DNA of 64,000 bases from Sporopachydermia quercuum (Eukaryota): assembly GCA_001599295.1 (NCBI GenBank), contig BCGN01000005.1, positions 806,001 to 870,000 on the forward strand, given 5' to 3'. A program made the position numbers and the translations under genes. Shown in pieces: positions 12,655-43,204 of the stretch (positions are counted from its first letter, which is position 1; each line of letters opens with the position of its first letter). The notes below the pieces were generated by a model. It searched no databases, had not been told where the DNA came from, and saw only the letters and a program-made list of their open reading frames with translations.

Positions 12655-13908
12655 ATGCCTGATGTTTATGAGTTATCTGATGGCGTAGCATCAGAGTCTG
12701 ATGATGATTTGATCGTTGTTGCAAGTGGTCCTTCATCAGATGTAATCCAACTCAGTGACACGGAACCCACAGGTGTATCTGCTAGTGAGGCGATTGATGT
12801 TGATTCGTTCATTCCAAGTGCATCTCCACAAGTGGCAGAATCACAATCACGCAATGGCAGGAATACTAGAAGGCGAAGAGGACNATCGCTTACCTATATG
12901 CCTTCACCTGATTCTGTTAGCATTCATAATCATGAAGAATTGCATAGAATCCAACATATGAATCATCACAATCAACATCAACCACAATACCAGCATGGCC
13001 ATAATGAAATTAACTTGCATACACCCACGGGGGCTATATCGTTCTTCTTGGAACAGGCTGATTACCCTCCATTGTCGAATTGGCGGCTACACCAAAATGT
13101 AAGAGGAATTCGACCGGACGGTATTAGTTTTGATAATAGTGGAGGACCTAGACAACGTTGGCGTGTAGGCAGAGGAGGAGTCAATAGTAGAAGAGGGAAT
13201 TCAGCAAGATCTCGTGGTGGAAGCCTTTCGTCTGCATTTGGATTTCAAGAGCTTCTCAATCTATACACTCAGAACCTTTTTGGAGCAACTTCGGAAGAGT
13301 CTTTTGGCTTTCAGACACCTGAGACTGTAGAGCAAGTTAACAATCAAAACGAAGTCTTCAAAGAAACGAGAAATGAATTAGAACATAGACAACCAAAGAG
13401 AGAAGGCTATATAGATGAGATCTCATCTGGTGATAATTTAGTATGTGTTTTATGTGGTTTAGAACTTGGGAACGGAATTCCTGAGACTCCAGATTATAGC
13501 AGTGAAGAAATGGATGAGCAAAAAATAGCAGAAATTAAGGATGCTCGAGAAGGAACGAGCTCAGATTTATCAATCAAGTACCGGAGACCGTTTAGTAAAG
13601 ATGAAATACAAACCAGCAAACATGTTTTCTTTGCAAAATGCGGCCATGTATACTGTGGGTTGTGTTTTCAGAATATATGTAAATCAGGCTGCACTAGACC
13701 TCGGAAAAGAAAGAAAGTCAACATTGATGTAGAGAAGAAAGGTACCAGTGATAGGGCATTTGACGCACTATGTGTTCCGGAGTGTTCCAAGCTTGGTCAA
13801 AAGGATCATTGGTGTTTTCCTATCAAATGTGTTGTTCCAGGTTGTAGCCAAGTTTTCAAACAAAAGAATATCAAACCAGCACGTGTTTTCTCAGAATTAT
13901 ATTTTTGA
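12655..13908 (+). CDS. SLX5: SUMO-targeted ubiquitin ligase subunit, RING finger
   Basis: N-terminal SIM-like motifs (DDDLIVV, DVIQLSD, EAIDVD). Split RING CVLCGLELGNGIP...FFAKCGHVYCGLC...C resembles the Slx5 RING. Confidence 0.75.
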   Translation: MPDVYELSDGVASESDDDLIVVASGPSSDVIQLSDTEPTGVSASEAIDVDSFIPSASPQVAESQSRNGRNTRRRRGXSLTYMPSPDSVSIHNHEELHRIQHMNHHNQHQPQYQHGHNEINLHTPTGAISFFLEQADYPPLSNWRLHQNVRGIRPDGISFDNSGGPRQRWRVGRGGVNSRRGNSARSRGGSLSSAFGFQELLNLYTQNLFGATSEESFGFQTPETVEQVNNQNEVFKETRNELEHRQPKREGYIDEISSGDNLVCVLCGLELGNGIPETPDYSSEEMDEQKIAEIKDAREGTSSDLSIKYRRPFSKDEIQTSKHVFFAKCGHVYCGLCFQNICKSGCTRPRKRKKVNIDVEKKGTSDRAFDALCVPECSKLGQKDHWCFPIKCVVPGCSQVFKQKNIKPARVFSELYF

Positions 13909-14332: not shown

Positions 14333-15439
14333 TCATCGTAAATGACTTGAGTAATTACCATCGCTTGGTCGCCTCCATTTTCTGTTATATTCATCTATCA
14401 ACGAATCTTCATAAATATGAGATATACTCACATTTTCAGCTTTCTCTTCTTTTCTATATGATTTGCATGAAGTATTCGATTTCTTCGCCTTCTCCTCATT
14501 TGTATTTGCACTGGACTCTTCAACCGCATTCTCAGTTTTCATATGTGGGCCGAAAACTTGCGATACATGAGAATTAACAAATAAGGTCTCCAAAGGGCAA
14601 AACACTAATTGAATAGTATTATATAGATAGTATCTTTTTCTTATTCTCAAAAACTTCAAGTGGACAACATCAAGTAAAGACCCATTGTTCGCTGCATGAA
14701 TTGATTGTCTGAGAAATGTTTTAGATCCATCAGCAAGATTATATAGATCATATGATATAAAAATACATCTGAACTTCTTTCTATCATGATTTGAAATATT
14801 CATTTGTAGTATTCCTTTAGAAGGTATCCTCAATCCAGGGTTAAACATGCCGGCATTCACACCGTTATTATTATTGCTGGAACTTGTCTTCTTTGCTTTC
14901 TCCTGGTAATAACTATCAATATTTATCTCACCAACATAAGGAGGGGGAACTTGTGAGGTCACCAAATGAGGATAATAAACAGCGTTGAAACAAATGCTTA
15001 TGTGAGCAGATAAGACAGCAGCAGTTTTACTGGGTCCAGTTTGTTTTATTAGTAAGCGTTTCGAGTTTTGAATAGATTTGTGTCTTGTATCCCATACTTG
15101 AAGTTTTGTCTCAAATTGTATGGGATCCGAAGGAGGTTCAGCTGTTCTTCCAGTCAACAATGCTTCTTCATATGAACCAGCAAGAGATGTTGCTCTCTTA
15201 TGAGATTTTGCTGGAAATGATACTAAAGGAGACGAAGAAGATGATGATGAGGATGAAGCAAGATTCGGTAGAGGCCCTATGGACAACCCGCCAGTTACAC
15301 TGGATAATTGCTCAATTGAACTCCTCTGTTGATTTGCGTTTGTTTCTTCTTCCTTTTCTAAATCTTCAGGACTGAAAACCGTACACAAGGACGATCGTCT
15401 TCTTGGGGTACTTTTATGAAGAGAATACGTAATAGGCAT
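14333..15439 (-). CDS. ATOS/FAM214-like protein (DUF4210 plus C-terminal chromosome-segregation-type domain)
   Basis: LAGSYEEALLTGR, PYVGEI, GLRIPSKGILQM.ISN, YDL..L..GSKTFLRQ, HLKF, RYYLYNTIQLVF. Confidence 0.8.
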   Translation of the reverse strand: MPITYSLHKSTPRRRSSLCTVFSPEDLEKEEETNANQQRSSIEQLSSVTGGLSIGPLPNLASSSSSSSSSPLVSFPAKSHKRATSLAGSYEEALLTGRTAEPPSDPIQFETKLQVWDTRHKSIQNSKRLLIKQTGPSKTAAVLSAHISICFNAVYYPHLVTSQVPPPYVGEINIDSYYQEKAKKTSSSNNNNGVNAGMFNPGLRIPSKGILQMNISNHDRKKFRCIFISYDLYNLADGSKTFLRQSIHAANNGSLLDVVHLKFLRIRKRYYLYNTIQLVFCPLETLFVNSHVSQVFGPHMKTENAVEESSANTNEEKAKKSNTSCKSYRKEEKAENVSISHIYEDSLIDEYNRKWRRPSDGNYSSHLR

Positions 15440-21996: not shown

Positions 21997-24900
21997 ATGT
22001 ATGTAATGGGGTTTTCATTTCGGATTGGTTGTAATTTGTTTGATGNAATGGCATTTGATAATTAAGACCAGTTGACACCGGGACACGGATCAATCAACAA
22101 AGAAATAAGAAAACGGAAAAGCCAACACTAACATGCTATTTTTAATAGGAAATTTGGGAAATATCTAGCAGCACGAATGCTGGATCTTCCAGAGTATTCG
22201 TCATATTTCATTGATTATAAAGCATTAAAAAAGGTATGTAAAGATGCAATCCTTTTATTAGGAGTTGTCAATTACTAACAAACTTTCTATCAGCTGATAA
22301 AATCATTATCAAAACCAAATGGATCAAACCCCCAGGAAGTTGAAATTGCCTTACAGGAAAATAAAGCAACGTTTTTCTTTCGATTGGAAAGAGAGTTGGA
22401 AAAAGTAAATAACTTCTATTTAGAAAAGGAAGCGTCATTAAAAGTACGACTAGACATTTTGGTGAAAAAGAAACAGGAAGCACTAAAAACTGGTAGACTA
22501 AATTCTCGTAACAGCGTTGCATATGTTTCATTATATGAGGGATTTCAAAGGTTCAGAAGAGATTTGGATAAGTTTGAACAGTACATTGAATTAAACGAAA
22601 CAGGATTTTCCAAAGTGTTGAAAAAATGGGATAAACGATCAAAATCCCAAACTAAAGAATTATATTTATCCACAGCTGTTGAAGTTCAACCAGTTTTCCA
22701 TCGGGAGGAAATTTCTGAATTGTCTGATGTCACTGCTTCAGCAATCCTTCATTTAGAAACNCTAGTTGAAGGAGGCATTATTTATGACACACCAGATAAA
22801 ACAAGCAGTAAGAATTCGGATATTGGCTCTGAACAGAAAATTACTAATGATAGAGGAAATGTCGCAAATTTTCATGAACAGTCAAGAGAACAATCAGTGG
22901 GTCCGCATATAAGTCCTTCAATGGCAAATACGGAATCAGCGATGTTCCTAGCTTCTTCTGATGATAGAGCCACTGATGATTTATACTATGAATTTGTTAA
23001 AACAGCTTCTTCGGCAACTTCTGTTGAAAACGATTGGAATGATTGGATTAATAAACTGCGCCATATGCCTGATGCNAAATCGCGTATGTCGAAGATCTTT
23101 CTTTTATCGATTTCGTCAGAGGCTTCCGATAATGCGTTATTAGCTCTTTATTCTTCAGGATATGTTGATTTAAATACGGTGGACGAATTGTCAGGACAAA
23201 ACTGTTTACATGCTTGTGCTGCAGCTGTTTTACAGAAAATTTCAGTTTCAGAAAATCAATCATATCCAAGGAAGGCTATTATTTCTCTTGCTTTGTCGGC
23301 TAAAGTTGATGTTACTAAGAAAGATTCTTCTGGAAGAACTCCTTTACACTATGCTTGCATGAACAATAAACGATACTTGATCAATCTATTTATTGATGCA
23401 GGAGCCCCAGTGAATTGTTTTGATAAGGACAACTTTTCTCCAGTGTTATATTCCATCCGATTCAACTATGCTGACTGTGTTAAAGATCTAATACATAAAG
23501 GAGCTTCAATTGAACCAAGAACAGAAAATGATTATATTCCATTAACGTTTGCTTGCTACTTTGGCTCATTAGAATCAGCAGAAATCATTCTTAACAAAGG
23601 GACTGAGCTTGATTCTTTCCCTATTTTACCCGACGCTGAGGGTTTATATCCAATACACGTAGTTGCTCGCAATGGACATTCAAAGCTTGTTAGACTACTC
23701 CGGGAAGCCAATCACGATATAAATAAAATGGATAAACTGAACTACTGGACACCCTTGTTCTATGCAGCATCTGAAGGTCATTTGGAAACAGTACGTGAAT
23801 TATTGGCCTGCGGTGCTAATCCTACTATTGTTGATGACAAGGGAAAGCTAGCCTCTTACTATGCTTCTTGGGAAGGCCATTTAGACTGCTTAACACTTAT
23901 ATCCGATGCTATCAACGAAGTAATTAGAACCAATAGTNCTATGGTAACTACTACAAGTCCTGGTTCCAACTCAGTCTCAAATTCCAACTCACAACGGTAT
24001 CAGCAAAAGACTCAGAATAGAAAATCAGCTATTACCGGTCCCGAATTCACTTCAGACTCATCAGGTGATCTTCTCCAAGCTCAATCACAAAATACCGAAT
24101 CAGCCTTCATTCTAGACTCCCAATTCAAACATGTAACATTAACATCCAAAACCAATGATTCTGGTATGCTATCGGATGTTTCCGACATTGAAGTGATCCC
24201 TGACTTGGAGCTTCCACCACCGATTATTCCATTACGAAGATATGGTCATAGCTTTTTAGAAAAGAAGATCTTCGTCCAGCTTATTTTCGCCCCGGGGCTC
24301 CATTCTGTTAACTTCTTTGGCTCTCAAACTGGGTCCCAAGCAGGTTTAGGCTTACCTACAGCTCATGAGTTCACTGGGAGAACTACCATCTCATCCCGTG
24401 GGTCNGATATAATTCCTAGGAATATAATGTATCCTTTGAACGATGGCGATCGGGTTGTTTCTTTCCAAGTAGACGATTTGACTGAGTTCAGTATTGATTT
24501 TGAATTCTTTCCTATATTTGGTACTAGAATGATCGCTAAGGCAACGGCACTTCCACATTTGTTCAATAGCAGCTCCTCAGGCGAAAGTGGTAATGGGCTA
24601 ATAGGTTGCAGTTCAACATGTACACTTCCTTTATTTGATATGAGACTCCGGACAGTCGGCCAACTCAAATTTGCTTTACAGGTAGTTCGACCATACGCAG
24701 GAACACCTCTAGAAATCTCTAAATTCGATACCTACTGGAAATCGACCTCTCAATTAGATCCTGTTGGTCCTGTTGGAATCCCACCGACATCCTCAGTTTC
24801 TGTAGTCACATCGACAATAGCCGGACTCATTGGTGGTTCTAGCGTTGGAGCTTCAGCACCAAGTTCAATAATGGATTTAGGATTAGAAGATGGATCAAGT

Positions 24901-25815
24901 AGAGCAACAGCAATAAATCCTGCAGTTCAAACGTTATCATTTGTTACATCATCATCACTTTCAGGTGAATATGTTCGAGTGAAACTATGCTGGTTAAGAG
25001 ATTCCAAGATTATTGTTTCTCCTAGTAGATTTATCTTAGCTGGTGGTGTACCAGTCCCTGTTTGTGTACTCACAGAAACTCAATTACAAGTCTTAACTGA
25101 AGCATTATACAATGGACATGAAATAAGAAATCAATTAACAAAAATCAGTAACATTGCTCAGCTGCAAGAACTGTTAACCAAAATATACATACCGTTGGAT
25201 GAGTTACTGGATTTATTACCATTAAGCATTAATCTAAATCTAGACATTTTCTTCCCAAGCAGAATTGAAGANGAAGAAANTGGTGGATTATGGAGTTCAG
25301 TAACGGATTTGAACAGTTATGTAGATGAAATTCTTGCTGGTGTTTTCAACCATGTTCGTAAATTTAGAGCAGCATCGGACACTGGAAATAATAATGGAAG
25401 TTCTAGATCTCGATCGTTATTGCTCTCATCAAATANTGCAGACGTCTGCACAGTTCTTAATTGGAAACAACCCAATTATCCTGTATTTTTCTCAATGGAA
25501 AGAAACGGTGGTCCAGGCGTTGAGCCTATCAATAAAGCTTCAGGAGGCGGATTAACATCATATGGTTTGGAGCTTCTTACGCCAAGATCATTCAGAGGAG
25601 CTACACAATATGCAATCAAGAATAACCTACTAGGAATAATCTGTGAGGACAATATATTAAAAATGGTTCCAGATTTAGTTGATACAATTAGATCATTTGG
25701 TCTTGTTTTAATAGCTGCCCATTCTACTGACGATCCATCAACAGCGCTACGGTCGGGAGTCAATGGTGTTTTATCAAATGGTGTATTGGTATTTCCTCAG
25801 GCTATAGATATGTAA
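21997..25815 (+). CDS. PHO81: SPX-ankyrin-GDPD-like CDK inhibitor Pho81/NUC-2, 1202 aa, three exons (21997-21998, 22149-22233, 22294-25815)
   Basis: Spliced N-terminus MKFGKYLAARMLDLPEYSSYFIDYKALKKLIK (SPX), then ELEKVNNFY, LNETGFSKVLKKWDKRSKS, ankyrin repeats, IPDLELPPPIIPLRRYGHSFL and CTVLNWKQPNYPVFF. Confidence 0.95.
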
Positions 25816-26997: not shown

Positions 26998-28077
26998 ATG
27001 TCGTCAACGGAAACTGAAACAAATCTGGCTGTACCAGCTATCACTGGTGACTCAACCGCTCCTAAATTGGTAAAACTACCTGATATACTAGCGCCTTACC
27101 GTTCTACCATAATTGCATATTCCTCATCATTAGTATCAACAACAATAGGCTTCCCCTTAGATTCTATAAAAACTAGACAACAAACTCATAAATATCCTTC
27201 TGTTTTTGCTTGCGTGAAGGATACTATTTCTAATGAAGGCATTAAAGGTTTATATAGAGGTCTATGGGCACCATTATTATCTACATCAGCATCAAGATCA
27301 ATATCGGTCGGAATTTACACAACAAGTAAACCTTTTATGCATTCATTCATTGGAAATATTTACCAACCAGCACATAGCAGTTCTGGCAAAATAGAAATCA
27401 TATTTAAGAACATTCCTGAGGCTTACTTGGCTGGAGCATTAGCAGGAATCTGCGTTTCCACGTTTGCCTGTCCTTTTGAATTTACAAAGCTCTTTTCTCA
27501 AATCGAGCAACTAGTTGTTCGTCATAATTTCAATTCAAACATCACGAAAACCAATCCTGTTTCTTTTGTTCCTGATTCAACTTGGCAAGTATGTAAAAAG
27601 ATTATATCTCATAGAGGGTTCAAAGGATTATATTCAGGATATGGGTTTCAAATAATACGTGATGCCGTTGGAAGTGGGATTTATTATGCTGTTTATGAAA
27701 CCATCAAGCTAGGTTTGGTATATAACAATCCAGAATCTTCTTCATCGCCATCTTCTTCTTCTTCAGGTAGCAATGCTGGCTCAATTGCTGTGTCTGGTGC
27801 TTTGGCAGGTGTCATTTGTTGGTTAGCTGTGTTCCCATTTGATACATTGAAATCGTTGTATCAAAAGAATATTGTCGCTGATATCATCAAACAGACGCAC
27901 CCAGATCTGGCAAATAACGCTGTTGCTGATACTGGTAGTGAATATGCAAAAATCAAAAAANTTTCTCATATTTTCAACAGGAGAATGTACCAGGGAATAG
28001 CAACTTCTGTTGTTAGAACAGCAATCGTTAGCATGACTTTCTTCTCTGGATTTGAGTATCTGTCGAAACTGTTTTGA
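26998..28077 (+). CDS. Mitochondrial carrier family (SLC25) protein, 359 aa, substrate unknown
   Basis: Three PxD/ExxK signatures (PLDSIKTR, PFEFTK, PFDTLKS) plus EGIKGLYRG and GFKGLYSG. First ATG at 26998. Confidence 0.9.
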   Translation: MSSTETETNLAVPAITGDSTAPKLVKLPDILAPYRSTIIAYSSSLVSTTIGFPLDSIKTRQQTHKYPSVFACVKDTISNEGIKGLYRGLWAPLLSTSASRSISVGIYTTSKPFMHSFIGNIYQPAHSSSGKIEIIFKNIPEAYLAGALAGICVSTFACPFEFTKLFSQIEQLVVRHNFNSNITKTNPVSFVPDSTWQVCKKIISHRGFKGLYSGYGFQIIRDAVGSGIYYAVYETIKLGLVYNNPESSSSPSSSSSGSNAGSIAVSGALAGVICWLAVFPFDTLKSLYQKNIVADIIKQTHPDLANNAVADTGSEYAKIKKXSHIFNRRMYQGIATSVVRTAIVSMTFFSGFEYLSKLF

Positions 28078-28786
28078 TAAGAAAGTTATTTGTAGTATCT
28101 GGTGAAATATGTACAGCTGGTGAGGATTCGATTCAGCTTGATAAACATAAACGTAAGGTGCAATGCGGTCAATTGGAACATTGAAACCAGAATTTTGAAG
28201 AGAAAATGATGGTATAACAAGACGAAATACCGTTAGTGTATGTACAGCAATGGAAGATGTTAGAATTGTTGAGGACTATTTTTGACGATTAGAAGGATCA
28301 AAAGAAAGTTAGCAATAAACAATTCTTGGGATTAATTTGGGGAGAACAAGCAACGAGAACAGCCTATTAATAATTGTCACATAGATCATATTAGTATTCT
28401 CAGCTTATTTATTTATCTAATACTGATTGTATTTGAATGTATTTATCTAATAGAATATTTATTAGGAATTCTATGAAGTAGAATANTTCTTGTATATATA
28501 TATACAAATGAACTTATAACTTTACAAATAGTGAATTCAAATGAATAGTGAAATTATCTGGAATGTCTATCTTACGGTATCCCAAACACACACTCAATTT
28601 AAATAAAGCATATATACATACAGTAAGTATATAGCATAATTTGATATAATACATTGGTAAACAGTTTGATATCTAGCTGAACAAAAATAGATAAAATCAT
28701 TAGGAACTTGTAAAATAAAATAACAACAAAGGATACTAATGAAAGCTCATTTGCCAGAAATATAATACAATTAATTCATCATAATA

Positions 28787-31700
28787 CTATACATGTTTAG
28801 AAGGGTCCAAATCTCTGATGACTTTCCCACTCCGAAGAATATGTCGAGGCGGTGTCAATTCTTTTAGCTTCCCTTCCTCTTCCGCTTCCCCTTCCGATTC
28901 TGATGCCAACTCTGTCTCCGCCTCCGATTCTCTATTGGTGAAGGGATTGGTATCTCCGTTATTCTTTATTAACTTCTCCGGTTTAGGATTACCTTCTGCG
29001 GTCTCAGTCACACCATCGTTTCCTTCTTCTTCTTCCTCTTTCTCAGCTTTACTACCAGTAGATACTGTCGATCTTTTACCTCTTCCTCCTCTTCCTCTTC
29101 CTCTTCCTCTTCCTCTTCCTCTTCTACCTCGTGCCCCTCTTCCACGCGTTGAATGTTTCGGCTCGCTTATAATAACTTCTGGCGATGGTGACTTAGCCGA
29201 AGTTGATTCTTCTTTATCGGGATAAACCTCAGCTATAGTATGCTCGGCTTCTCTGACAATGTCAGCATTTTCTTCCATTTGGTGTTCCGATTCGCTTTCC
29301 GTATTTCCCTCCAAATTATCTTCTTGTTCCTCTGCTTCCTCATCTGTATCGAATTTGTTATGATATTGTTTATGCAAGCCCAAGTCAACTTCAGAGTTAA
29401 CTTTCAATCCAGTCTCCGCTTCTGGTGCAGAAGTTTGTGTCTTCTCTTCTTCGGATTCATTTCCAATCGTATTTTCTTCCCGAAGTTCCCAAGATACTTT
29501 TACAGGTTTCGGTTCCAGTTCTGCTTCCGATTCATCCTCTGCCTTAGATTCAGCATTAGATTCATCATGATTCTCCTGTTCTTCATCGGAAACTACAATT
29601 TTTGACTGTAAGTCTGACAGAACATTTGAAGTTGAGACGTTTGATTTGAACTGTTCATCTTCCGGCTTTTCAGTTTCCTCTTCAACCTCAATTTCATAGT
29701 CGGAGATTTCTTCCTTCTGTTTTTGTTCTTGTTCCCTATCGTCATTACCATTTCTGTTATTATCAATATCAGATGCATCCATCNTTTCCGCTTTATCATC
29801 TGAGTCTTTAATTGAAATACTTGATTGACAAATTCCTATCTGGTTTAAATCACTTGCATTGTTAATACTATTGTTTCCGGTATTAATAACAACATTAGGA
29901 TTGTGATCGGATGCATCCTCTCCGGTATGACGAGCGTCTTCCATAACAACATCACCTCCACTATTGTATGGATTAGTCTCTTGATGTGCCAAAACTGGCT
30001 GTGGGATNTTATTGATAGCCATCAAAGCGAAATTTAGACCATTTGGAGGAGAAGTAAGTGTACTATTGGTTATTACTGTTTTTGTTGAATGAGATGGGAC
30101 CTCTGATAAGTTCTCTAACGCTTCATCGGATAGCTCTTCCGGTTTTACTTCCAATTCCACTTCTACAACATGTTCAGGTTCAACTAAGGTTTCTGTTTCT
30201 CTTATTATCTCTGCTTTGCTTTCTATTGATATGAATTCAATTGTTTCCGATATATCGCCAGGCTGCGATTCAGAAATTTCAGCATCTAGATTGCCTTCTC
30301 CGCTATTTTCTTCCCCACCATCAACTTCGTTTATAATAGCATCAGAACTACATTTGTCGTCTCCGTTTTCCCCTTTTTCCACGTNTGATTTCCAAGGAGA
30401 AACTGATCCTCGATTGACATTTTCAGATTCGTTCGAAGCCATGTCCCTATTACCATATGATTCATGCGTCAATTCAACTTCACTTTCGGACTCAACTACC
30501 GAATGAGCCCTTCCTGAATGTGTTTCCAGTTGCTCTTGCTCCCATTCTTCTTGTGATTCTTTTTGTGATTCTTTCTCCGCTTCTTGCTCCGATTCTTCAA
30601 GAGGAATACTATCGGGAATAATTCCAGAGTACTGTTCCACTGTTTGATCCAAAATCTGCTTCAAAACGGTTTCCGAATTATCAGCCATCACAGCTATATC
30701 TTCGATTTCCACTCCCTGCTGTCTAATTCTATGTTCATTTATTTCTTCCGTTATTGGTCTTATACCTTCCGATTTCTGTAAATTTCCATATGCTTCAGAT
30801 TGATTAATTTGATCATAAACTTCAACCGGCATTATTATAGTTTCCGTTCTTTCTGTTGCTTGCAAATCATTAGCTTCTGTGTTTCTTGACATTTGATCAT
30901 CGTTAACTTCAACTGGTGTTATCTCCGCAATTTCTTCCGAAGTATATTCAATATTATTGATGCTTTGTTCTTCGTCAACCTTCATCGAATCTTCTATAGT
31001 ATTATTTTCTTCAATTTCAAGATCATCTCTGGAATCGCATGGTAAATCAGATTCCTGTTCAGCTTGAGAACCTGACTCGATCAGTACTTCAGCTTCAACC
31101 TCAGCTTTCGAAGCTACTTTGGTTTCTCTTCCACGTACTTCTGTCTCAACATCCGACTCTTCGGATCCCTCGGCTTGTTCTGATTCTTCCGAATTGACAT
31201 CCAACTCGGAACCTATTTNCATATTTCCTTGTCCTAAAATATCAGCCTCTAGTTTTATCTCTTCTACTTCTTCTTCTTCTTCTTCTTTATTATAATTAGA
31301 CTCCGTAATCATATCTACATCTGAAGTTTCCTCTACTTCGATTTCCACTATTTTGGCTGCCANCACTTCTGCTTCCTCTAATTCGACAGATTCAGCTTCT
31401 TCCTCTTCAATATTTTCATCATCTACGGTATTGCCAGTGTCCGCTTGTCGGTTAACTTGTTGAGTTGATATGATTTCCGTGACTGTTTCAAAGGTTTCTT
31501 TCTTTTCCCTATTATTTCTGCNTTGAGATAAATGTGAAAGCATATCAACATCTTCAGAAAGCAGTTCTGTGGTTTTTAAACTTTCTTTTTCGTGTGGAAA
31601 TGTATTTTTCTGTTCGGTATCCACTATGGTTTCTGATATAGCTTCCGTTGTTTTCTCCGTTATTTTCTCCGTTTCCACTATTTGTAAATCTTCTTCAGCT

Positions 31701-33943
31701 AGTAAATCAAAATCCTTTCCGGTATTGTTATCTTCTCCCGAATCTTCTCGGACAGTAGCACCAGCGGTTTTAGCAATGTCATCGTTTCTATTTTCAGGAT
31801 TGTAAATCGAAACGGGACCTTCGACTTTATCATCAGCATCATTCATATTCTCATCATTTTCGGTTACCTTGCCTTCCTTGTCTTCTATAATACTATTATT
31901 TCCAACTTGATTATCTTCAACTATATCANCTGATTGTTCACGATGAAATTCATGTGATTCTGGTGAGTTGTTACTTGCATTCTCAATGTCCGTACCAACC
32001 ATCACTTCTGATTCGTTAGATTGTGGCTGTGATCCTACTATGATTTCCGATTTATCCTGAGTTTCTGTTCCCGCTTCCGTTTTTTCTTCTGCACTGCTCA
32101 TCGTTTCACCCTCTTCGCCCATCAATACGTTTTCAGCATTGATAGTAGAAAATGCCAACTGTTGTATTTCACTTTCAGAAAGGACGGGGACAGAAATCTC
32201 CTCCATGTCTATATCAAACAAAGCAGAATCTATTTGATCATTAGCCACAGTTTGTTGGAAGTTTGTTTCCAATTCTTCTTTGGAGTCAATTTCATTCTGA
32301 ATTTCTTTTTCCAGTTCATTTTCCTCATCATCAAAGTCACTTTTTTCTTCTTCTTCCTCTTCATCTTCCTCTTCTTCTTCCTCAGAAAACGCTTCTTGTT
32401 CATTAGGAGGATAACTAGAAGGATTTGAAATGTGTGATAGCTGAAGGTCATCATGTAGCTGTAGCTGTGTATGATACATTGATTGGGCGGCATAATTACT
32501 NTTAATTAACGATGGTTTATTTGGCAGAGTACATTGAGAATTAATGAGAGAATGCCGTAGCTGTGTTTGAAATGCCAAAATATGTTCTTCGTCGTCACTT
32601 TGGTGAGATTCGTCAGAGTGAGAATCATTTTCTCCAGAATACTCGTCTTCACTATCGTCTCCATTTCCTTCTACTGATTCTTCGTCTTCTTCCGCCCCTT
32701 CTTCTTCTTCATCAGAGTCAAGAATACTTATGACGTTATTTGAAGATAGTCCTGGTTCAATATTTACGTTGTTTCCATTTTCTTTTTCTTCAAATTCTTC
32801 AGATTCTCCACTTTCGTTTTCATTTTCATCATCCTCATCCTCTATGTCTTCCACTTCCTCACCATCGCTTTCATCATCGTTCTGTTGACCAAAATTATGG
32901 TTAAAGCTGCTATCTACTGCCAGCGTATCCATAAGCCGAGGTTTATTTGTTACTGGACGATTCAGTGAATTTGCACCAGGGAGCTCAAGATTCCTGAAGA
33001 TGTTCTCCTCATCTTCAACATACTCATCTCCTTCTTCTCCGTTATCTTCCTCATACTCTTCCTCATACTCTTCTTCTTCTTTGCTTTTTTCACTTTCAAC
33101 TTCTTCATCTTCCGCTTCTCTAGCTTCTGCGGTTTCTTTTATAGATTCGCCAAAAAGCTCCTCATCAATCTCTTCAGCAAACATTTCATGATTACGATCT
33201 TCAATTGATTCGTCGACAACAGGCGTTTGCTCTTCCTCTTCAATGAATACGTCGTGCACCTTATCGCCAGTNCCCATGAATTCATCTTGTTCGTCAATGC
33301 CATTACCAGCTTCTGTTATATCCTCATTTTCTGGTGATTCATTAAACCTTCGAAAATCATCTCCAACATAAGTATTATTAAGGACCGAGAACTCATTACT
33401 ACGGTTATAGTTTTCAGGCTGAAATTCACCACCCTCTTCTTCTTCTTCTTCTTCTTCTTCTTCTTCTTCTTCTTCTTCTTCACTATCCGCTTCTTCTTGT
33501 TCTATCTTTACATCTCCTTCATTATCACCGTCATCACCATAGTTTTCACTGTTCTCTTTTTTCACTCTTTTATATTGACTATTGAAAGTATCATCACCAT
33601 AATCCATTGATTGATTTGCTAGATCTAATATTCGTTTGCGAGCTTTCTGAGTTTCCTCGTTAATACTAGAAGTTCTCACTTGCAGCTCTCTTATTTCTTC
33701 TTCATGTTTCCTTAATGCTTCTGCTTCTTTCACTCGTTCCCTTTCTAATATAGCTCCAAGTTTCTGGAATTCGCTCACNCGAGGGCTATAAAGTAATTCT
33801 TGCTCTTCTTTCAGCTTTTTCAGCTTCAAAAGAAACAATTCATCTTCCTTTGCTGAGTTTTCTAACGTTTTCCTAGCCCGTTCTTTTATCGAATGAAGCC
33901 ATGACAACAGCCCTGTCGAAGATTTACTTTCTTCCTGGGACAT
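28787..33943 (-). CDS. ESC1: Esc1-like very large acidic nuclear-periphery protein, 1718 aa
   Basis: Very E/D-rich, with size similar to S. cerevisiae Esc1. N-terminal LLSWLHSIKERARKTLENSAKEDELF matches the recalled Esc1 segment ALSWVDSLINRGKSILTTLEKEDALF. Divergent from TRS130, as YMR219W is from YMR218C. Confidence 0.72.
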   Translation of the reverse strand: MSQEESKSSTGLLSWLHSIKERARKTLENSAKEDELFLLKLKKLKEEQELLYSPXVSEFQKLGAILERERVKEAEALRKHEEEIRELQVRTSSINEETQKARKRILDLANQSMDYGDDTFNSQYKRVKKENSENYGDDGDNEGDVKIEQEEADSEEEEEEEEEEEEEEEEGGEFQPENYNRSNEFSVLNNTYVGDDFRRFNESPENEDITEAGNGIDEQDEFMXTGDKVHDVFIEEEEQTPVVDESIEDRNHEMFAEEIDEELFGESIKETAEAREAEDEEVESEKSKEEEEYEEEYEEDNGEEGDEYVEDEENIFRNLELPGANSLNRPVTNKPRLMDTLAVDSSFNHNFGQQNDDESDGEEVEDIEDEDDENENESGESEEFEEKENGNNVNIEPGLSSNNVISILDSDEEEEGAEEDEESVEGNGDDSEDEYSGENDSHSDESHQSDDEEHILAFQTQLRHSLINSQCTLPNKPSLIXSNYAAQSMYHTQLQLHDDLQLSHISNPSSYPPNEQEAFSEEEEEEDEEEEEEKSDFDDEENELEKEIQNEIDSKEELETNFQQTVANDQIDSALFDIDMEEISVPVLSESEIQQLAFSTINAENVLMGEEGETMSSAEEKTEAGTETQDKSEIIVGSQPQSNESEVMVGTDIENASNNSPESHEFHREQSXDIVEDNQVGNNSIIEDKEGKVTENDENMNDADDKVEGPVSIYNPENRNDDIAKTAGATVREDSGEDNNTGKDFDLLAEEDLQIVETEKITEKTTEAISETIVDTEQKNTFPHEKESLKTTELLSEDVDMLSHLSQXRNNREKKETFETVTEIISTQQVNRQADTGNTVDDENIEEEEAESVELEEAEVXAAKIVEIEVEETSDVDMITESNYNKEEEEEEVEEIKLEADILGQGNMXIGSELDVNSEESEQAEGSEESDVETEVRGRETKVASKAEVEAEVLIESGSQAEQESDLPCDSRDDLEIEENNTIEDSMKVDEEQSINNIEYTSEEIAEITPVEVNDDQMSRNTEANDLQATERTETIIMPVEVYDQINQSEAYGNLQKSEGIRPITEEINEHRIRQQGVEIEDIAVMADNSETVLKQILDQTVEQYSGIIPDSIPLEESEQEAEKESQKESQEEWEQEQLETHSGRAHSVVESESEVELTHESYGNRDMASNESENVNRGSVSPWKSXVEKGENGDDKCSSDAIINEVDGGEENSGEGNLDAEISESQPGDISETIEFISIESKAEIIRETETLVEPEHVVEVELEVKPEELSDEALENLSEVPSHSTKTVITNSTLTSPPNGLNFALMAINXIPQPVLAHQETNPYNSGGDVVMEDARHTGEDASDHNPNVVINTGNNSINNASDLNQIGICQSSISIKDSDDKAEXMDASDIDNNRNGNDDREQEQKQKEEISDYEIEVEEETEKPEDEQFKSNVSTSNVLSDLQSKIVVSDEEQENHDESNAESKAEDESEAELEPKPVKVSWELREENTIGNESEEEKTQTSAPEAETGLKVNSEVDLGLHKQYHNKFDTDEEAEEQEDNLEGNTESESEHQMEENADIVREAEHTIAEVYPDKEESTSAKSPSPEVIISEPKHSTRGRGARGRRGRGRGRGRGRGGRGKRSTVSTGSKAEKEEEEEGNDGVTETAEGNPKPEKLIKNNGDTNPFTNRESEAETELASESEGEAEEEGKLKELTPPRHILRSGKVIRDLDPSKHV
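29079..29146. repeat. (CCTCTT)n hexamer repeat encoding an RG tract
   Basis: Minus-strand translation RGRGARGRRGRGRGRGRGRGGRG. Confidence 0.85.
33435..33481. repeat. (TTC)n microsatellite encoding poly-Glu
   Basis: About 15 TTC units inside the ESC1-like CDS. Confidence 0.95.
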
Positions 33944-35129: not shown

Positions 35130-38100
35130 ATGGTTGAACCACCCATTAGTAACCCAAATTCATCATCAGGAAAACAAACAATATCGGCATCAACAAACGA
35201 ACCAAAAATTGCATACTATGACCCGTTTTCATTATACCCCAAATTACGCCATGAAATAAAATCAAAGCTTCCTTTGACGAATATTCATTGGAAATCAGAA
35301 ACCCGTCCTCTGAGATCAATTCCCACGCTACCAGTACAACTAGTTGAAGAATTGCCAAGTAGCTCTATGTCCAAAGGACCAATGCATCAAATGCCGGGTA
35401 TAGCAAGCGTCCCTTATGTTCAATTGATGCTTTTTGAATGTTCAGACGTTGATACTTATCGNAATGAAGTAAGACCTCTGATTAGAGAATGGTTGAAGAG
35501 AGCAGTGACGAATCAAAGAGATCCAACTGAATGGTTTATCATATTTTACCATAATACCCAAAATAAGCTTAGAAACAGCTTGGTTGAAAAATTCAAAGTC
35601 GATTTTCAAAACGCCAGCAAGAATGAACACAGCGTTGATAGAATTATGATTGTGAGGTCAGACTTTTCATCAACAATGGAAAGAATTGAAGCTTGGAGTG
35701 AATTCGCTGCTAGATTGAAAGATGCATTATTGGCGTCGTTTGGTGATCGCGTTTCTCTGTATGAGCATGAAGTTGCGAAGCTTGAAAATCAAAGAAATGT
35801 CCCCGGTTGGAATTTCGCTAAGTTTTACTCTATCAAAGAATCTCTAGCTATTGCTTTTGAAGATATGTGCTTATATGAAGATGCTTTAATAATTTATCAT
35901 GAGCTTGAGGAATTATTCGAATCTCTATACAGTGAAAATTCACTATCATTCTTTTCGTCCGTTGGATTCGATGAATTTCCAAATTCAATTCACGACTATT
36001 CCACATCATTGGCAAGTAAATTAAGACCTCAGATTTTAGCGAATACTATCACATTGTTTGATTTTCGTTGCTATCTATTCTCCCATCAAGCTAATATGTT
36101 GTTAAACATCAACAGAATATCGTCATCTCCATCAGTTGCATCAGTTCGTTTAGCAGAACTGCTTTTCTCCGCTAGAAAATTTATTGCCGATATGCAAACA
36201 TTGCTATTAGCGGCAGGGAAACAACCAGAAATGGTTTCTCAATGGGTTTACAAAGTATCGAAGGAATTCTTATCATACGGTCAAGAAGAATATAATGAAG
36301 GAATTACTGTTCTTGTTACACCTGATTTAGCTACAGCAAGAGGCCATTTAATCTTAGCAATGAGGTCAGAATTAGTTCGTCTTGCCAAGAGTAAAAAATG
36401 GTCAATCAAAGGTTTAATAGTCAATATTGAAATCCGGCCTTACTATTTTGCTGAAGAAGATGAGTTTACTATTGAATTCGCTGATCTGCAATCTTCATTA
36501 GCATCTGAAGATGCTTTCCAAGCAAAATTTGAAGAATTGACATTGCTTGCAATGAATGAGTTTAAAACTGCTGGTAGCCCAAGACTACTAAATAACTTAT
36601 CTGTTGATGTTGCATTACTGAAATATTATCAAGGAAACTATGAGGAAGCTGCTTCAATGTTAGAAAACCATCATATGGTTTATGATGCTCAGGGCTGGAC
36701 TTTCATTGAAGCCTATTTACTGAAGATTTACTATAACTGTATGAAACTTACAGGTAGGAAACAGAATTTGATACAGTCTTGTTTGCATTTCTTATCAATG
36801 CCCGGTTTCCTTAGTGAAATGGATATTTCTGATGCATTAGCAACTCTTCATGATGTTAGTAAAGATAAGGAACTTCAATTAGAGTATCCATTAGATAGTC
36901 TATTTGAGCTTGAGATTCTACCATATGTATCACCAGCAAATAATAACGGAGATGGATATTATGAATTGGAAGCATTGATACACAATTCGTTTAATGAGAA
37001 AGTATATTTCGATGAGTTGGAGTTAATACTAATTGCTGATTTGCCTTCTGGTATAGAAGATCATGATCCATTATCATCAACAGTTCCAAAAATTATGTTC
37101 AGTTTACTTGATAATACTAGTGACAACTCTAGTGACAATAATCTTAAAGAGAAGTATTTATCACCGGGAAACAATAGGTTTATTCTCAAATCAAGTGAAG
37201 TTGTTATTGGTGAATTCAAACTAGGAAATATCTGCCTGAAAATCAATAACTTAGAACTAATCAAAACATTTAATGGGAATTCAACTGAAAATGAGAAAAT
37301 TTTAGTGTTTCCTGGCTCAGACATGTTTCATGCTCGTGTATGCCAAGCATCAACTATCAGTTTAACTGAAATGGCAATATGTGTAGAGATTTCTACGGGA
37401 CAGGTAGATATTGAAGAAATGAGTATAATAGCGGAACCAGAAACTGGGTTTTCTTTGCAGTATGAAAAGGCCAAAGCTATTTTAGATGACAATGATAATA
37501 GTGGTAATGGAAGCAGTAGTGAAAAGGAAATAATTCATGATAGCGATAGTAATAGTGCAAGTACTAGCAATCCTACTGATTGTACAACTACTACTAATAA
37601 AACAGCTACACCTTTGATTCTGAAATCAATTTCTAAAGGAAAAACTCTTTCAATCAACATCCCTTATCAAACTTCACCATCTAATGAAGATAAATCGGAA
37701 ATAATGGTAGATGTTTTAATCAAATATCATACTATTGATAAATTGCACCACAGTTATCATTTCCGGGACTCATTAGATATGACACTTATGATATCCGTTT
37801 CTGTCCAAGATGTTTTCCGGAATTCCAACATCTTCTCCAGATTTCTTGTCAGCTCTTCAATTAATTCGTTACCAATGAGGATACTGGAAAGTGAATTGAA
37901 AGGTAATAATAAATTCACAGTTAGAAGCCCAAAGAAACAATTAAATATAATATCATTTGAAAATCAACCTGTGGCAAGTATTTTCGCTATTTCGCCAAAT
38001 GAAAATGAGAAATTGAAAGAAAACGATTCATTATTACTACAAGTGAAATATCGGTCATTATCTGATGAAATATTTGAATTGATTTGGAAGTCGTTCACCA

Positions 38101-38798
38101 ATAAAATAAAACAATCGAATAACAGTTTAACTGCTTATTTATTGCTATTGAAACCTATTTTGATAGAGTTCTGTCAATCAGTTGATTTAAATCGGTATGG
38201 TCAAACAGGGTTTATTATTATGGAAGAATTCGATATTACGAGGCCAGAATGGTTGGATATCTTTGTTCATATTCCTAAGCCTTACCGACAAGAAGCTATT
38301 GATATTTTAGAGCATTTTGTTAAAGATAATGAGACATTTGATGATTCACAATTCGTTCATAAATCTGATAGATTATTAACTATATCTGTTACATTACCAT
38401 TATGTCATGTTCTTTATACAATTCAATTTGATTTACCAAATGATCAACAATTTACTGTTGGTAAACCAATTAATACTCAATTCACTATTGAAACCTGCGT
38501 GAATTGGAATGGCAATGAATGTCTACCTAATGACGAAATCTATGAATTGGAACTCAAAACTGTACAGGATAATTGGATGATAGCTGGCAAATGTAGACTT
38601 TCATGGAATATGCAGTCTAGCAAACAATCTGTGCCAATAATCATTGTTCCTCTGAAAACAGGTAGAATTAAATTTCCTGAAGTCAATATTACATCAAAGA
38701 ATGTTAAATCCGCTTTCCCTATTGAGGTTAACTATAAAAACAGTTGTCAGACTGTTTTGATTGAGCCGGAGCTTGATCGGGTTATTTTTTCTTATTGA
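35130..38798 (+). CDS. TRS130: TRAPPII subunit Trs130/TRAPPC10
   Basis: IAYYDPF, LPLTNIHWK, RPLRSI, VRPLIREW, RNVPGWNF..F...KESLA..FE...LYEDAL..Y.EL, ITLFDFRCYLF, and C-terminal NWMIAGK...IVPLKTGRIKFPEV. Confidence 0.92.
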   Translation: MVEPPISNPNSSSGKQTISASTNEPKIAYYDPFSLYPKLRHEIKSKLPLTNIHWKSETRPLRSIPTLPVQLVEELPSSSMSKGPMHQMPGIASVPYVQLMLFECSDVDTYXNEVRPLIREWLKRAVTNQRDPTEWFIIFYHNTQNKLRNSLVEKFKVDFQNASKNEHSVDRIMIVRSDFSSTMERIEAWSEFAARLKDALLASFGDRVSLYEHEVAKLENQRNVPGWNFAKFYSIKESLAIAFEDMCLYEDALIIYHELEELFESLYSENSLSFFSSVGFDEFPNSIHDYSTSLASKLRPQILANTITLFDFRCYLFSHQANMLLNINRISSSPSVASVRLAELLFSARKFIADMQTLLLAAGKQPEMVSQWVYKVSKEFLSYGQEEYNEGITVLVTPDLATARGHLILAMRSELVRLAKSKKWSIKGLIVNIEIRPYYFAEEDEFTIEFADLQSSLASEDAFQAKFEELTLLAMNEFKTAGSPRLLNNLSVDVALLKYYQGNYEEAASMLENHHMVYDAQGWTFIEAYLLKIYYNCMKLTGRKQNLIQSCLHFLSMPGFLSEMDISDALATLHDVSKDKELQLEYPLDSLFELEILPYVSPANNNGDGYYELEALIHNSFNEKVYFDELELILIADLPSGIEDHDPLSSTVPKIMFSLLDNTSDNSSDNNLKEKYLSPGNNRFILKSSEVVIGEFKLGNICLKINNLELIKTFNGNSTENEKILVFPGSDMFHARVCQASTISLTEMAICVEISTGQVDIEEMSIIAEPETGFSLQYEKAKAILDDNDNSGNGSSSEKEIIHDSDSNSASTSNPTDCTTTTNKTATPLILKSISKGKTLSINIPYQTSPSNEDKSEIMVDVLIKYHTIDKLHHSYHFRDSLDMTLMISVSVQDVFRNSNIFSRFLVSSSINSLPMRILESELKGNNKFTVRSPKKQLNIISFENQPVASIFAISPNENEKLKENDSLLLQVKYRSLSDEIFELIWKSFTNKIKQSNNSLTAYLLLLKPILIEFCQSVDLNRYGQTGFIIMEEFDITRPEWLDIFVHIPKPYRQEAIDILEHFVKDNETFDDSQFVHKSDRLLTISVTLPLCHVLYTIQFDLPNDQQFTVGKPINTQFTIETCVNWNGNECLPNDEIYELELKTVQDNWMIAGKCRLSWNMQSSKQSVPIIIVPLKTGRIKFPEVNITSKNVKSAFPIEVNYKNSCQTVLIEPELDRVIFSY

Positions 38799-39607: not shown

Positions 39608-40375
39608 TCAGACGTACTCATTTATTCCTTTAGCAATTGACTCTGGATTTGGCTTCTCGGCAGTGAAAACAGGCTCTAAGCCGTTGTTCCTTAAATACTC
39701 TGTTGTGGTAGGACCAATCGACACAATTTTGATCGAATCAATAATTCCTTCTTCCCGCTTGATCATTTTAACAATTTTCTCTGTTCCTGAAGGCGAAAAG
39801 AAAACAATCCAACAGCCAGGTTCAATAGCTTCTTTAACTCGTTTATGACAATCTTCTAATGTTTCTGTCTTATACACTTCAAGCTCTTCTATATCAATTC
39901 CTTCTGCTTTCATTCTCTTGGGGATAATATCACGACGAATCTCCCCAGCTGGGAATAAAATATGTTGATATGTATTTTTCTCATGATGATCTTTTGCTAT
40001 TATGTCTGATAGTATTAATCCATTGCCTGCATTATCACCTCTAACATCTTTGAACCCTAGTCTCCTCATAGCTGTAGCGGTAGCTGGTCCAACTGTGTAA
40101 GCTGGTAATGAAAAAGAATTCTGAAACGAATCTAGAGTCTCTCTCGGTAAGCTTTGCATCGCTTCAACTGTCCTTTGAGATGTGATGACAATTGCATCCA
40201 TATTTCCACCCTTTAGGCGATCTTCTAACTTGTCAAGGTTCTTATATGAGTGCGTGAGCAAAGGTATGAACACAGGATATAGATCTGTTTGTTCTAGCAA
40301 CGATTCGTACTTATCATGAGTCATTGATTTATTTTTTAGCAGAAGCACCTTTTTGCTTAAGTTGACAGATGTCAT
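39608..40375 (-). CDS. HEM4: Uroporphyrinogen-III synthase
   Basis: VLLLKNKS..HDKY, AIVITSQRTVEA, YTVGPAT, AGNGLILS, LFPAGEIRRDIIP, VYKT, WIVFFSPSG, SIGPTT, AEKPNP. Confidence 0.95.
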   Translation of the reverse strand: MTSVNLSKKVLLLKNKSMTHDKYESLLEQTDLYPVFIPLLTHSYKNLDKLEDRLKGGNMDAIVITSQRTVEAMQSLPRETLDSFQNSFSLPAYTVGPATATAMRRLGFKDVRGDNAGNGLILSDIIAKDHHEKNTYQHILFPAGEIRRDIIPKRMKAEGIDIEELEVYKTETLEDCHKRVKEAIEPGCWIVFFSPSGTEKIVKMIKREEGIIDSIKIVSIGPTTTEYLRNNGLEPVFTAEKPNPESIAKGINEYV

Positions 40376-41467: not shown

Positions 41468-43204
41468 ATGACGAAAATTGATAGGCAGCTGCTGCAGTGG
41501 CTTGGAAGCAATAGTGAAGGTTTCGAAATAGGTTTAGAGATAAGAAAATCATCATTGGGAGGAATAGGAGTGTTTGCTACTAAGAAGATAAAAGCAGAAA
41601 CGCAGTTGTTATCTGTTCATAAACACAATATTTTGTCAATAAAAACGTAAGTCTTATATATTTCAGAAAACTGCTTTTGACTCCATGGTGTTTCCAATTG
41701 TGTTTACCAGATTAGATGGAGGCAGACCAGTATCATCNATATGAAACATACTAACACTTACATTAGATGTGGTATAAGCAATATTCTAGCTGATGCAGGA
41801 TTTACTGAGTTAGTCAGCCTTATATTAGCAGTATGGTTTGAATTAGGGCTTGATGAAAACTCTCCTTGGGCTCCTTATCTAAAGTATGTCATAGAAGGTG
41901 ATTATTCATTGTTACCCCAGTTCTGGTCCAAGGATGAGAAAGAACTGCTGAAAGGAACAGAAGCTCATTTGCTTGAAGATTTAGATGAAAAAAGGTACGT
42001 TGAATCTTTTAATGAAAAAGTGCATCCTTTTATTGAGAAAAACAAGGACTATTTTAAAGACATGAGTTATACTACATTTAGAGAGTTAATATGCAAAGTG
42101 GGAAGCAGAGCTTTTGAAGTTGATGCGTATCTTGGACTAAGTTTAATACCAGGTGCTGACTTGTTTAATCATGGCGTTGATCCTGATGTTGTTCTAGAAA
42201 CTATTGATGATGTGTGTACACTTTGCGGTATGATACAGTGTGATCATAGAGAATCGGAAGATGGCTGTCAAGATGGCTGTGGATGTGATCATGAGCATGG
42301 GCATGGGCCTGAGCATGGGGAAGATAATGAAAATGGATGGGAAGATGAAGAATTTGAATCAGATTATAGTGACGACCTTAGTAATGGTGAGCTGAGAATT
42401 CCTAAGGATGATGATATGAATGATCTTGACGATGAGTTTATAGAACCTATAGTGAGAAGTGAAAAGGCTGAAGAGATTGAATGTTGCGACATTGTCTCCA
42501 TACGGCCAATAGAAAAAGGAAATGAAATTTTGAACACTTTCGGAGATTTTGGGAATGAAACTTTGCTTACGAGATATGGTTTTTCTATTTGGGATAATCC
42601 TTATGCAACTGTTAGTCTCGGTAACGAATTCTATCAATATGCATTGAAGCATAAGCTTAAAGGTAGATTTGTTTGGTGGGACACTGTTGGATATCCTTTG
42701 TTTTCTAAAATATTGAAAGAGGAGGAAAGGAAGTATAAACAAAAAAATATGGCAGAATCTGATGAGGAAGATAAAGAGGAGGATGAAATGGATGATCATG
42801 AAAAGTATGATGAAGACGATGAAGAAATAAGCTGGCGGGATGCATTGAGAGTGAATGAATTATGTGAACCAACGCTCATTGCTTTAGCGACTGCTAAATT
42901 GTTAGCTCTCAGTGAACCACATTATGTCAAACTGATGACCAGTACAGGNAAAAAGAATACAAGCTTGCTAGCTAAGTTCCTAGGTCCATTTAGTGATAAG
43001 ACAAAGGAACTCATAGTACACATTTTGAAAATGAGGTTGAAAAAGTACGAGGACGGTAACCTATCAAGTAATGATTATTTAAACATTTTAAGTGATTCCA
43101 ATGAGAAGTCAAAGCTGTCAAATGCCAGGAAAACAGCTATGATAACGGTTGGAACTGAAAAGCTAAAGATTGAAAGGGCNATACATTTCACTTATAGTTT
43201 ATGA
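41468..43204 (+). CDS. RKM3: SET-domain ribosomal protein lysine methyltransferase, 538 aa, two exons (41468-41646, 41767-43204)
   Basis: GGIGVFA, intron GTAAGT..TACTAAC..TAG, SPWAPYL, SRAFEVDAYLGLSLIPGADLFNH, a VCTLCG...C.H insertion and EILNTFG..N..LL.RYGF. Confidence 0.8.

Follow-up and report, generated by a model that had tools for sequence, protein, structure and literature searches.

The window, as the whole 64,000-nucleotide stretch of Sporopachydermia quercuum DNA analysed here is called, carries in one run the genes for a mitochondrial carrier, an acidic low-complexity protein, TRS130 (TRAPPC10), HEM4 and an RKM3-like SET protein (Table 1). The acidic gene is single copy in a search of its own genome. 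Asp and Glu make up 29% of its product, which has a net charge of -355, in agreement with the initial annotation of this open reading frame as coding for a very acidic protein. A Pfam scan assigned the protein to no family, and Pfam and NCBIfam together returned only sub-threshold coiled-coil or low-complexity matches. A membrane-spanning segment was sought and rejected, as the maximum Kyte-Doolittle hydropathy over 19 residues is only 0.92. Ten codons of the gene contain N, including codon 909, which is formally a possible stop, and the last 330 codons are free of such letters.

Table 1. Genes and protein features at the acidic-gene locus (window positions; L013 and L014 are two Geotrichum candidum loci)
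Feature	Residues	Position	Strand	Remarks
Mitochondrial carrier		26998..28077	(+)	synteny marker, retained in L014
Acidic low-complexity protein gene, positional ESC1 orthologue		28787..33943	(-)	1718 aa
Conserved 13-residue motif TPPRHILRSGKVI	1697-1709	28817..28855	(-)	ungapped match to G. candidum SPPHMSLRSGRRI; modelled on H2A-H2B
Arg-Gly tract	1600-1624	29072..29146	(-)	mostly AGA and GGA codons
SIM-like motif (hydrophobic strand, Ser, acidic run)	404-411	32711..32734	(-)	found by regular expression
Second shared N-terminal motif, F-x-KLG-x-IL-xxx-RV	59-71	33731..33769	(-)	opens long helix
N-terminal Trp-containing amphipathic helix	11-27	33863..33913	(-)	common to G. candidum
TRS130 (TRAPPC10)		35130..38798	(+)	head-to-head neighbour, synteny anchor
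HEM4		39608..40375	(-)	synteny marker, retained in L014
RKM3-like SET protein		41741..43204	(+)	synteny marker, retained in L013

Searches for relatives by sequence were empty at both ends of the protein: residues 1-140 as a query gave no homologue among 689 candidates, residues 1676-1718 none among 44, and residues 1-130 none among 1.84 billion representatives. The Atlas search with residues 1-54 likewise found no homologue. Contigs of runs X1 and X2 are identical to positions 28500-29071 and may themselves be the source of the window, and those of runs X4 and X5 matched it in low-complexity scraps only.

ESC1 of S. cerevisiae is YMR219W (PMC2064674, available part) and TRS130 is YMR218C, systematic names from which a head-to-head order of the two genes can be inferred. 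By position, then, the Esc1-like identity proposed in the initial annotation is borne out, and orthology to Esc1 is probable, resting on gene order, size and composition.

A second copy of this arrangement was reached through TRS130. Nineteen relatives of it were recovered among 8000 scored candidates, and an alignment of the window TRS130 with 8 of them served as the query for metagenome contigs. Of 106 pattern matches there, 3 were confirmed (L013, L014 and L015); TRS130 scans of the genome-contig and viral-contig collections gave no loci. Named cluster members identify L013 and L014 as Geotrichum candidum. The L013 block consists of an acidic gene, TRS130 and RKM3, and the L014 block of the carrier, TRS130 and HEM4, without the acidic gene; L015 has different neighbours and a TRS130 with no acidic gene adjacent. 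The acidic gene thus stands beside TRS130 in one of the three confirmed loci. A genome duplication is described for the Geotrichum lineage in the available part of PMC12424943, and because of it two blocks with reciprocal losses are the pattern expected; the absence of the acidic gene from L014 is read as a loss after duplication.

Over the first 600 aa, the TRS130 proteins of the window and of G. candidum share 37% identity. A quick tree, built from few taxa and a fast gene, puts the window outside a group of Geotrichum and Sugiyamaella. The two yeasts are, judging from these sequences, distant from each other. The two G. candidum copies of TRS130 (L013 and L014) are 54% identical over 600 aa, and each carries an intron near codon 875-880 that is absent from the window TRS130. 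In the available portion of the G. candidum gene table, the gene opposite TRS130, GECA03s02936g, is entered as 'Conserved hypothetical protein (1677)', and there are SIR2 entries but no ESC1 or SIR4 entry (PMC4479816). Downstream of the acidic gene, L013 also has a 667-codon open reading frame (L013:360-2360, (-)), rich in Ser and Thr and built of tandem repeats, which resembles a cell-surface protein. Adjoining HEM4 in the other block (L014:6960-8090, (-)) is a gene that we take to be endopolygalacturonase-like.

The gene model for L013 has two introns (58 and 52 nt, GT...CTAAC...AG) and yields a protein of 1750 aa with no internal stops. The product is 24% Asp and Glu, with a net charge of -264 and a basic tail, and its maximum hydropathy of 0.82 leaves no membrane span. 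At 1718 and 1750 aa, the two proteins lie close in size to Esc1, which has 1658 aa (PMC6394760, available part). The two match at the N terminus, where the shared region reaches a BLASTP E of 0.002 and an alignment score found in 0 of 1000 shuffles. Residues 12-29 have the highest 18-residue hydrophobic moment in the window protein, with a weaker matching helix in G. candidum, and the Trp-containing helix is a candidate for membrane or partner contact. It may also bear a likeness to Esc1. When the N-terminal 130 residues were modelled, they formed two long helices (8-51 and 57-129; pTM 0.37), for which Foldseek found no match. The G. candidum protein has, like the window protein, one SIM-like motif (aa 237). 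According to the available text of PMC6394760, Esc1 has a set of motifs A-F, described within Saccharomycetaceae, of which A is helical and C is SIM-like; the two helices and the SIM-like motif of the window protein fit this wording for Esc1-A and Esc1-C, features that are common. The Atlas search with the first exon of the G. candidum gene gave a single unusable bacterial match at 0.79, and the N-terminal exon and the tail, used as queries on the genome of the window yeast, did not retrieve the window gene.

The C-terminal region is the part of the protein to which the initial annotation had assigned an RG tract and an LRSG motif resembling the MxLRSG nucleosome anchor of KSHV LANA and IL-33. 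LRSG occupies residues 1703-1706 (nt 28837-28826), with Arg1704 as the candidate arginine anchor, and its flanks are of low complexity. The protein had been said to end with RHILRSGKVIRD; it actually continues for seven residues more, and the stop follows 12 residues after LRSG. Two places ahead of Leu stands His, giving HxLRSG in place of the form with Met found in LANA. The Thr-Pro-Pro-Arg preceding the motif presumably fits a proline-directed kinase site.

The RG tract is present as described, about 80 mostly acidic or polar residues away from LRSG. It was rejected as a conserved element, since the last 150 aa hold 10 RG pairs in the window protein vs 2 in G. candidum, and as an AT-hook, since GRP is absent. 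Of the tract, G. candidum shares only the terminal GGRGKRS, and the order of tract and LRSG is reversed between the two proteins.

In G. candidum, SPPHMSLRSGRRI stands 67 residues before the end of the protein and contains the full MxLRSG. Aligned without gaps to the window motif, it is identical in 7 of 13 residues, 1 of 13 codons and 19 of 39 bases, and the identities beyond LRSG (Pro, Pro and Ile) are in register. In both species the motif lies at 0.96-0.99 of the protein length. Conservation in close orthologues had been proposed as the check on this motif, and the one orthologue examined keeps it. All 15 listed members of the 21-member G. candidum cluster have it too, which adds little because they represent a single species and vary at 28 of 736 sites; the conservation covers two lineages only.

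How much weight this match can bear depends on how easily LRSG arises. In a pool of 62 frames taken from the same genome it occurs at about 2.3e-5 per residue, and its chance in the last 20 residues of one given protein is 5e-4. Taken alone, the 4-mer is weak evidence. It is present in 2 of the long open reading frames of the window, and a degenerate MxLRSG pattern had 53 matches genome-wide; among the 30 retrieved, MxLRSG itself occurs in 6, in long frames twice and in frames of fewer than 70 codons four times. These counts speak for coincidence, that is, for a functionless LRSG that happens to occur in two orthologous, disordered and basic tails, as do the sample of two proteins and the rank of the motif pair, which is eighth among ungapped 14-mers, after three chance-looking matches. 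BLASTP gives the motif match an E of 0.047, and when the whole orthologue is searched without positional constraint, 45 of 1000 shuffles reach its score. However, the motif and its place were specified before the orthologue was seen, which is where the strength of the match comes from, and LRSG rises above chance because the orthologue has it too. In 100000 shuffles of the last 100 aa of the G. candidum protein, LRSG appeared 330 times (0.003), LRSG[KR] 59 times (0.0006) and MxLRSG 11 times, and 2 of 5000 shuffles matched the score obtained when the C-terminal 40 aa of the window protein were compared with these 100 aa. Together with the three further identities in gapless register, these figures make coincidence a rather improbable explanation.

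Two other occurrences in the same genome illustrate the background. The gene for an ankyrin/GDE1-like protein, 3 kb away in the window (22921-25815, (+)), has LRSG 18 residues before its end, in an apparent folded domain, and served as a chance control. Between two divergent genes (L035:1500-1524; G000:C2:1256065), a 15-codon frame contains MRLRSGR followed by a stop; this is taken as a chance match and as a warning about the motif.

Modelling of the tail on the histones, suggested in the initial annotation, gave a LANA-like docking. The C-terminal 40 aa were modelled with H2A and H2B from the same genome, and the complex scored 0.76, vs 0.05 for the best of three controls, with runs agreeing in at least 76% of contacts and a partner pLDDT of at least 56. 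As calibration, 51 of 78 solved microbial pairs pass the score mark, against 2 of 108 mismatched ones; in eukaryotes, the numbers are 39 of 65 for solved pairs and 2 of 126 for unrelated ones. The calibration contains no peptides or disordered chains. In the model, Arg1704 enters the acidic pocket and contacts E64 and E95 of H2A, Leu1703 contacts A63, E64 and E67, His1701 contacts E59, Y60 and A63, and Ile1709 lies against V53, Q56 and T57 of H2B. With an offset of three, the H2A contacts map to E56, Y57, A60, E61, E64 and E92, the same residues that are reviewed, in the available part of PMC9040877, for R9, M6 and L8 of LANA and for foamy virus Gag. The pocket residue D93 (= D90) is absent from the confident contacts of Arg1704. 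The pass is to be taken as likeness, not as binding, because the LANA complex is already solved, and the model may be drawing on its memory of it. A phmmer search of PDB sequences with the G. candidum motif gave no match. The genome yielded a single H2A-H2B pair along with two identical H3 proteins, and the one H2B found (L004:1492-1905) carries a C-terminal extension, ending Glu-Lys-Lys-Lys-Ala, past the usual end.

The comparison with known anchors extends in several directions. Like LANA (GMRLRSGRS, 1ZLA) and IL-33 (MXLRSG), the fungal motif has an LRSG core followed by a basic residue, with MxLRSG in G. candidum and matching modelled H2A contacts in the window protein (PMC9040877, available part). 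Unlike them, it is C-terminal in a cellular fungal protein, has His for Met in the window protein and no Arg at the place of LANA R7, and bears a conserved Ile five residues past the Arg and Ser/Thr-Pro-Pro before it. There is no common ancestry, and the resemblance is therefore convergent. Prototype foamy virus Gag has an Aromatic-x-Leu-Arg anchor in a disordered tail rich in Gly and Arg, with Tyr at the place of the LANA Met, but it is viral and its extended binding reaches H3 (PMC9040877, same part). ELYS (MEL-28/AHCTF1), a protein of the nuclear periphery, likewise binds the acidic patch directly through its C-terminal region (PMC6499780, available part); it does so with an RRK stretch, seeds pore assembly following open mitosis, and no similarity between it and the window protein was found. 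The yeast anchors of Epl1, Sir3 and Orc1 and the ALC1 linker are cellular and engage the same pocket, but they are parts of enzymes or folded domains and not an LRSG hairpin on a peripheral scaffold. Individual elements of the arrangement have precedents in IL-33, ELYS, Epl1 (10.1101/2022.07.12.499507, available part) and the ALC1 linker (PMC7116876, available part), and more than half of nucleosome interactions are driven by the acidic patch (PMC7515726, available part). A literature search that most subscription journals lay outside found no acidic-patch motif reported for Esc1 and no LANA/IL-33 motif in any fungal scaffold.

These observations make it probable that this probable Esc1 orthologue carries a LANA-type anchor. 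A motif that is homologous in the two yeasts could also be used otherwise, as an import signal, as a kinase docking or phosphorylation site, or for a non-histone partner, with the LANA likeness incidental. Its location in a basic tail beside a conserved Ser/Thr-Pro-Pro would suit such a use, as would the copurification of Esc1 with the importin Kap121 (PMC3861087, available part), and the acidic patch can dock many basic peptides. What is conserved, however, is Leu, Ser, Gly and Ile around a single Arg, with no run of Lys or Arg; import could rely on basic stretches elsewhere in the tail, and the MxLRSG of the orthologue is precisely the motif described as essential for IL-33 (PMC8750818, available part). 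Such other uses appear improbable, and the identification of the motif as an acidic-patch anchor fairly likely.

Where such an anchor would act is suggested by Esc1. In S. cerevisiae, Esc1 anchors telomeres through phospho-Ser1450 and the H-BRCT domain of Sir4 (10.64898/2025.12.09.692953, available part), and it belongs to a network with the Mlps (PMC3861087, available part). Sir4 itself is described as restricted to Saccharomycetaceae (PMC6394760, available part), outside which the yeast carrying this ESC1 orthologue appears to lie. A search of its genome for the SIR4 domain PF16991 gave no match, with an uninformative control; the same holds for the HP1-type chromo-shadow and Clr4-type Pre-SET domains and their controls, and an MSC search gave one match, below the cut-off. 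Sites that presumably resemble Ser1450, by the pattern [ST]-x-PP, are found at aa 510 and 1297 of the window protein and at aa 1257 of the G. candidum protein. They share no context. Fungi are without lamins (PMC5630835), and for one Sir4-free clade the silencing mechanism is called unknown in the available text of PMC6394760.

In the preferred explanation, the product would be a long acidic spacer that links a short helical N-terminal module to a basic tail. The tail would form a hairpin of the LANA/IL-33 type, in which Arg1704 enters the acidic pocket of H2A and the hydrophobic groove between H2A and H2B is covered by Leu1703, Ile1709 and residue 1701, which is His in the window protein and Met in G. 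candidum. Arg-Gly residues near the motif may contribute to DNA contact or to import. At the other end, the N-terminal helices would most likely keep the protein at the nuclear rim, where Esc1 also sits, and chromatin would be tethered there directly, without Sir4. In both species a Ser/Thr-Pro immediately precedes the motif, and its phosphorylation would perhaps release the nucleosome. Direct envelope tethering, which the initial annotation had proposed as a Sir4-independent, lamina-like system, is put forward here as a hypothesis, and the whole picture, a direct chromatin tether at the rim formed by an ESC1 orthologue with a LANA-type anchor, has in our estimation about an even chance of being right.

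The main rival accepts the anchor and places it elsewhere, with the protein a nucleoplasmic acidic chromatin factor or histone chaperone, or merely a neighbour of TRS130 that is not Esc1. The acidic body would then hold histones or shield the basic tail, and LRSG would dock the protein to nucleosomes. All of the positive evidence bears on the motif and none on location, both proteins are highly negative with no membrane-spanning stretch, no sequence link to Esc1 was found, and the G. candidum gene is entered as a conserved hypothetical protein. On the other side, Esc1 is itself a peripheral and not an integral protein (PMC6394760 and PMC3861087, in their available parts), and the body of Esc1 is poorly conserved with short helical and SIM-like motifs (PMC6394760, same part); the head-to-head order with TRS130, the lengths, the helical module and the SIM-like motif of the window protein all agree with this, which makes an anchor without an envelope tether unlikely. 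The estimate given above for the anchor is the sum of this reading and the tether.

If the direct tether is real, the Esc1 family reaches far beyond Saccharomycetaceae, the LANA/IL-33 motif gains a cellular fungal case, and the unannotated G. candidum gene GECA03s02936g gains a function. The arginine anchor of the perinuclear scaffold would then offer a one-residue handle on rim chromatin in Sir4-free yeasts. It is conceivable, though doubtful, that Esc1 in its ancestral form tethered nucleosomes directly at the inner nuclear membrane, standing in for the lamina in fungi by means of N-terminal amphipathic helices, an acidic spacer of 1500 residues and a phospho-switchable LANA-type anchor, that the Sir4-binding phosphosite of baker's yeast was a later replacement, and that Sir4-free yeasts keep the direct anchor.

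Two further genes of the window deserve mention. The first (12655-13908, (+)) encodes a 417-aa protein without a Pfam match, with SIM-like hydrophobic-acidic motifs in its N-terminal part and a split, Cys-rich, RING-like C terminus, and we take it to resemble a SUMO-targeted ubiquitin ligase subunit. The second (14333-15439, (-)) encodes a DUF4210 protein, presumably of the ATOS/FAM214 type, a domain that is, to our knowledge, unusual for budding yeasts.
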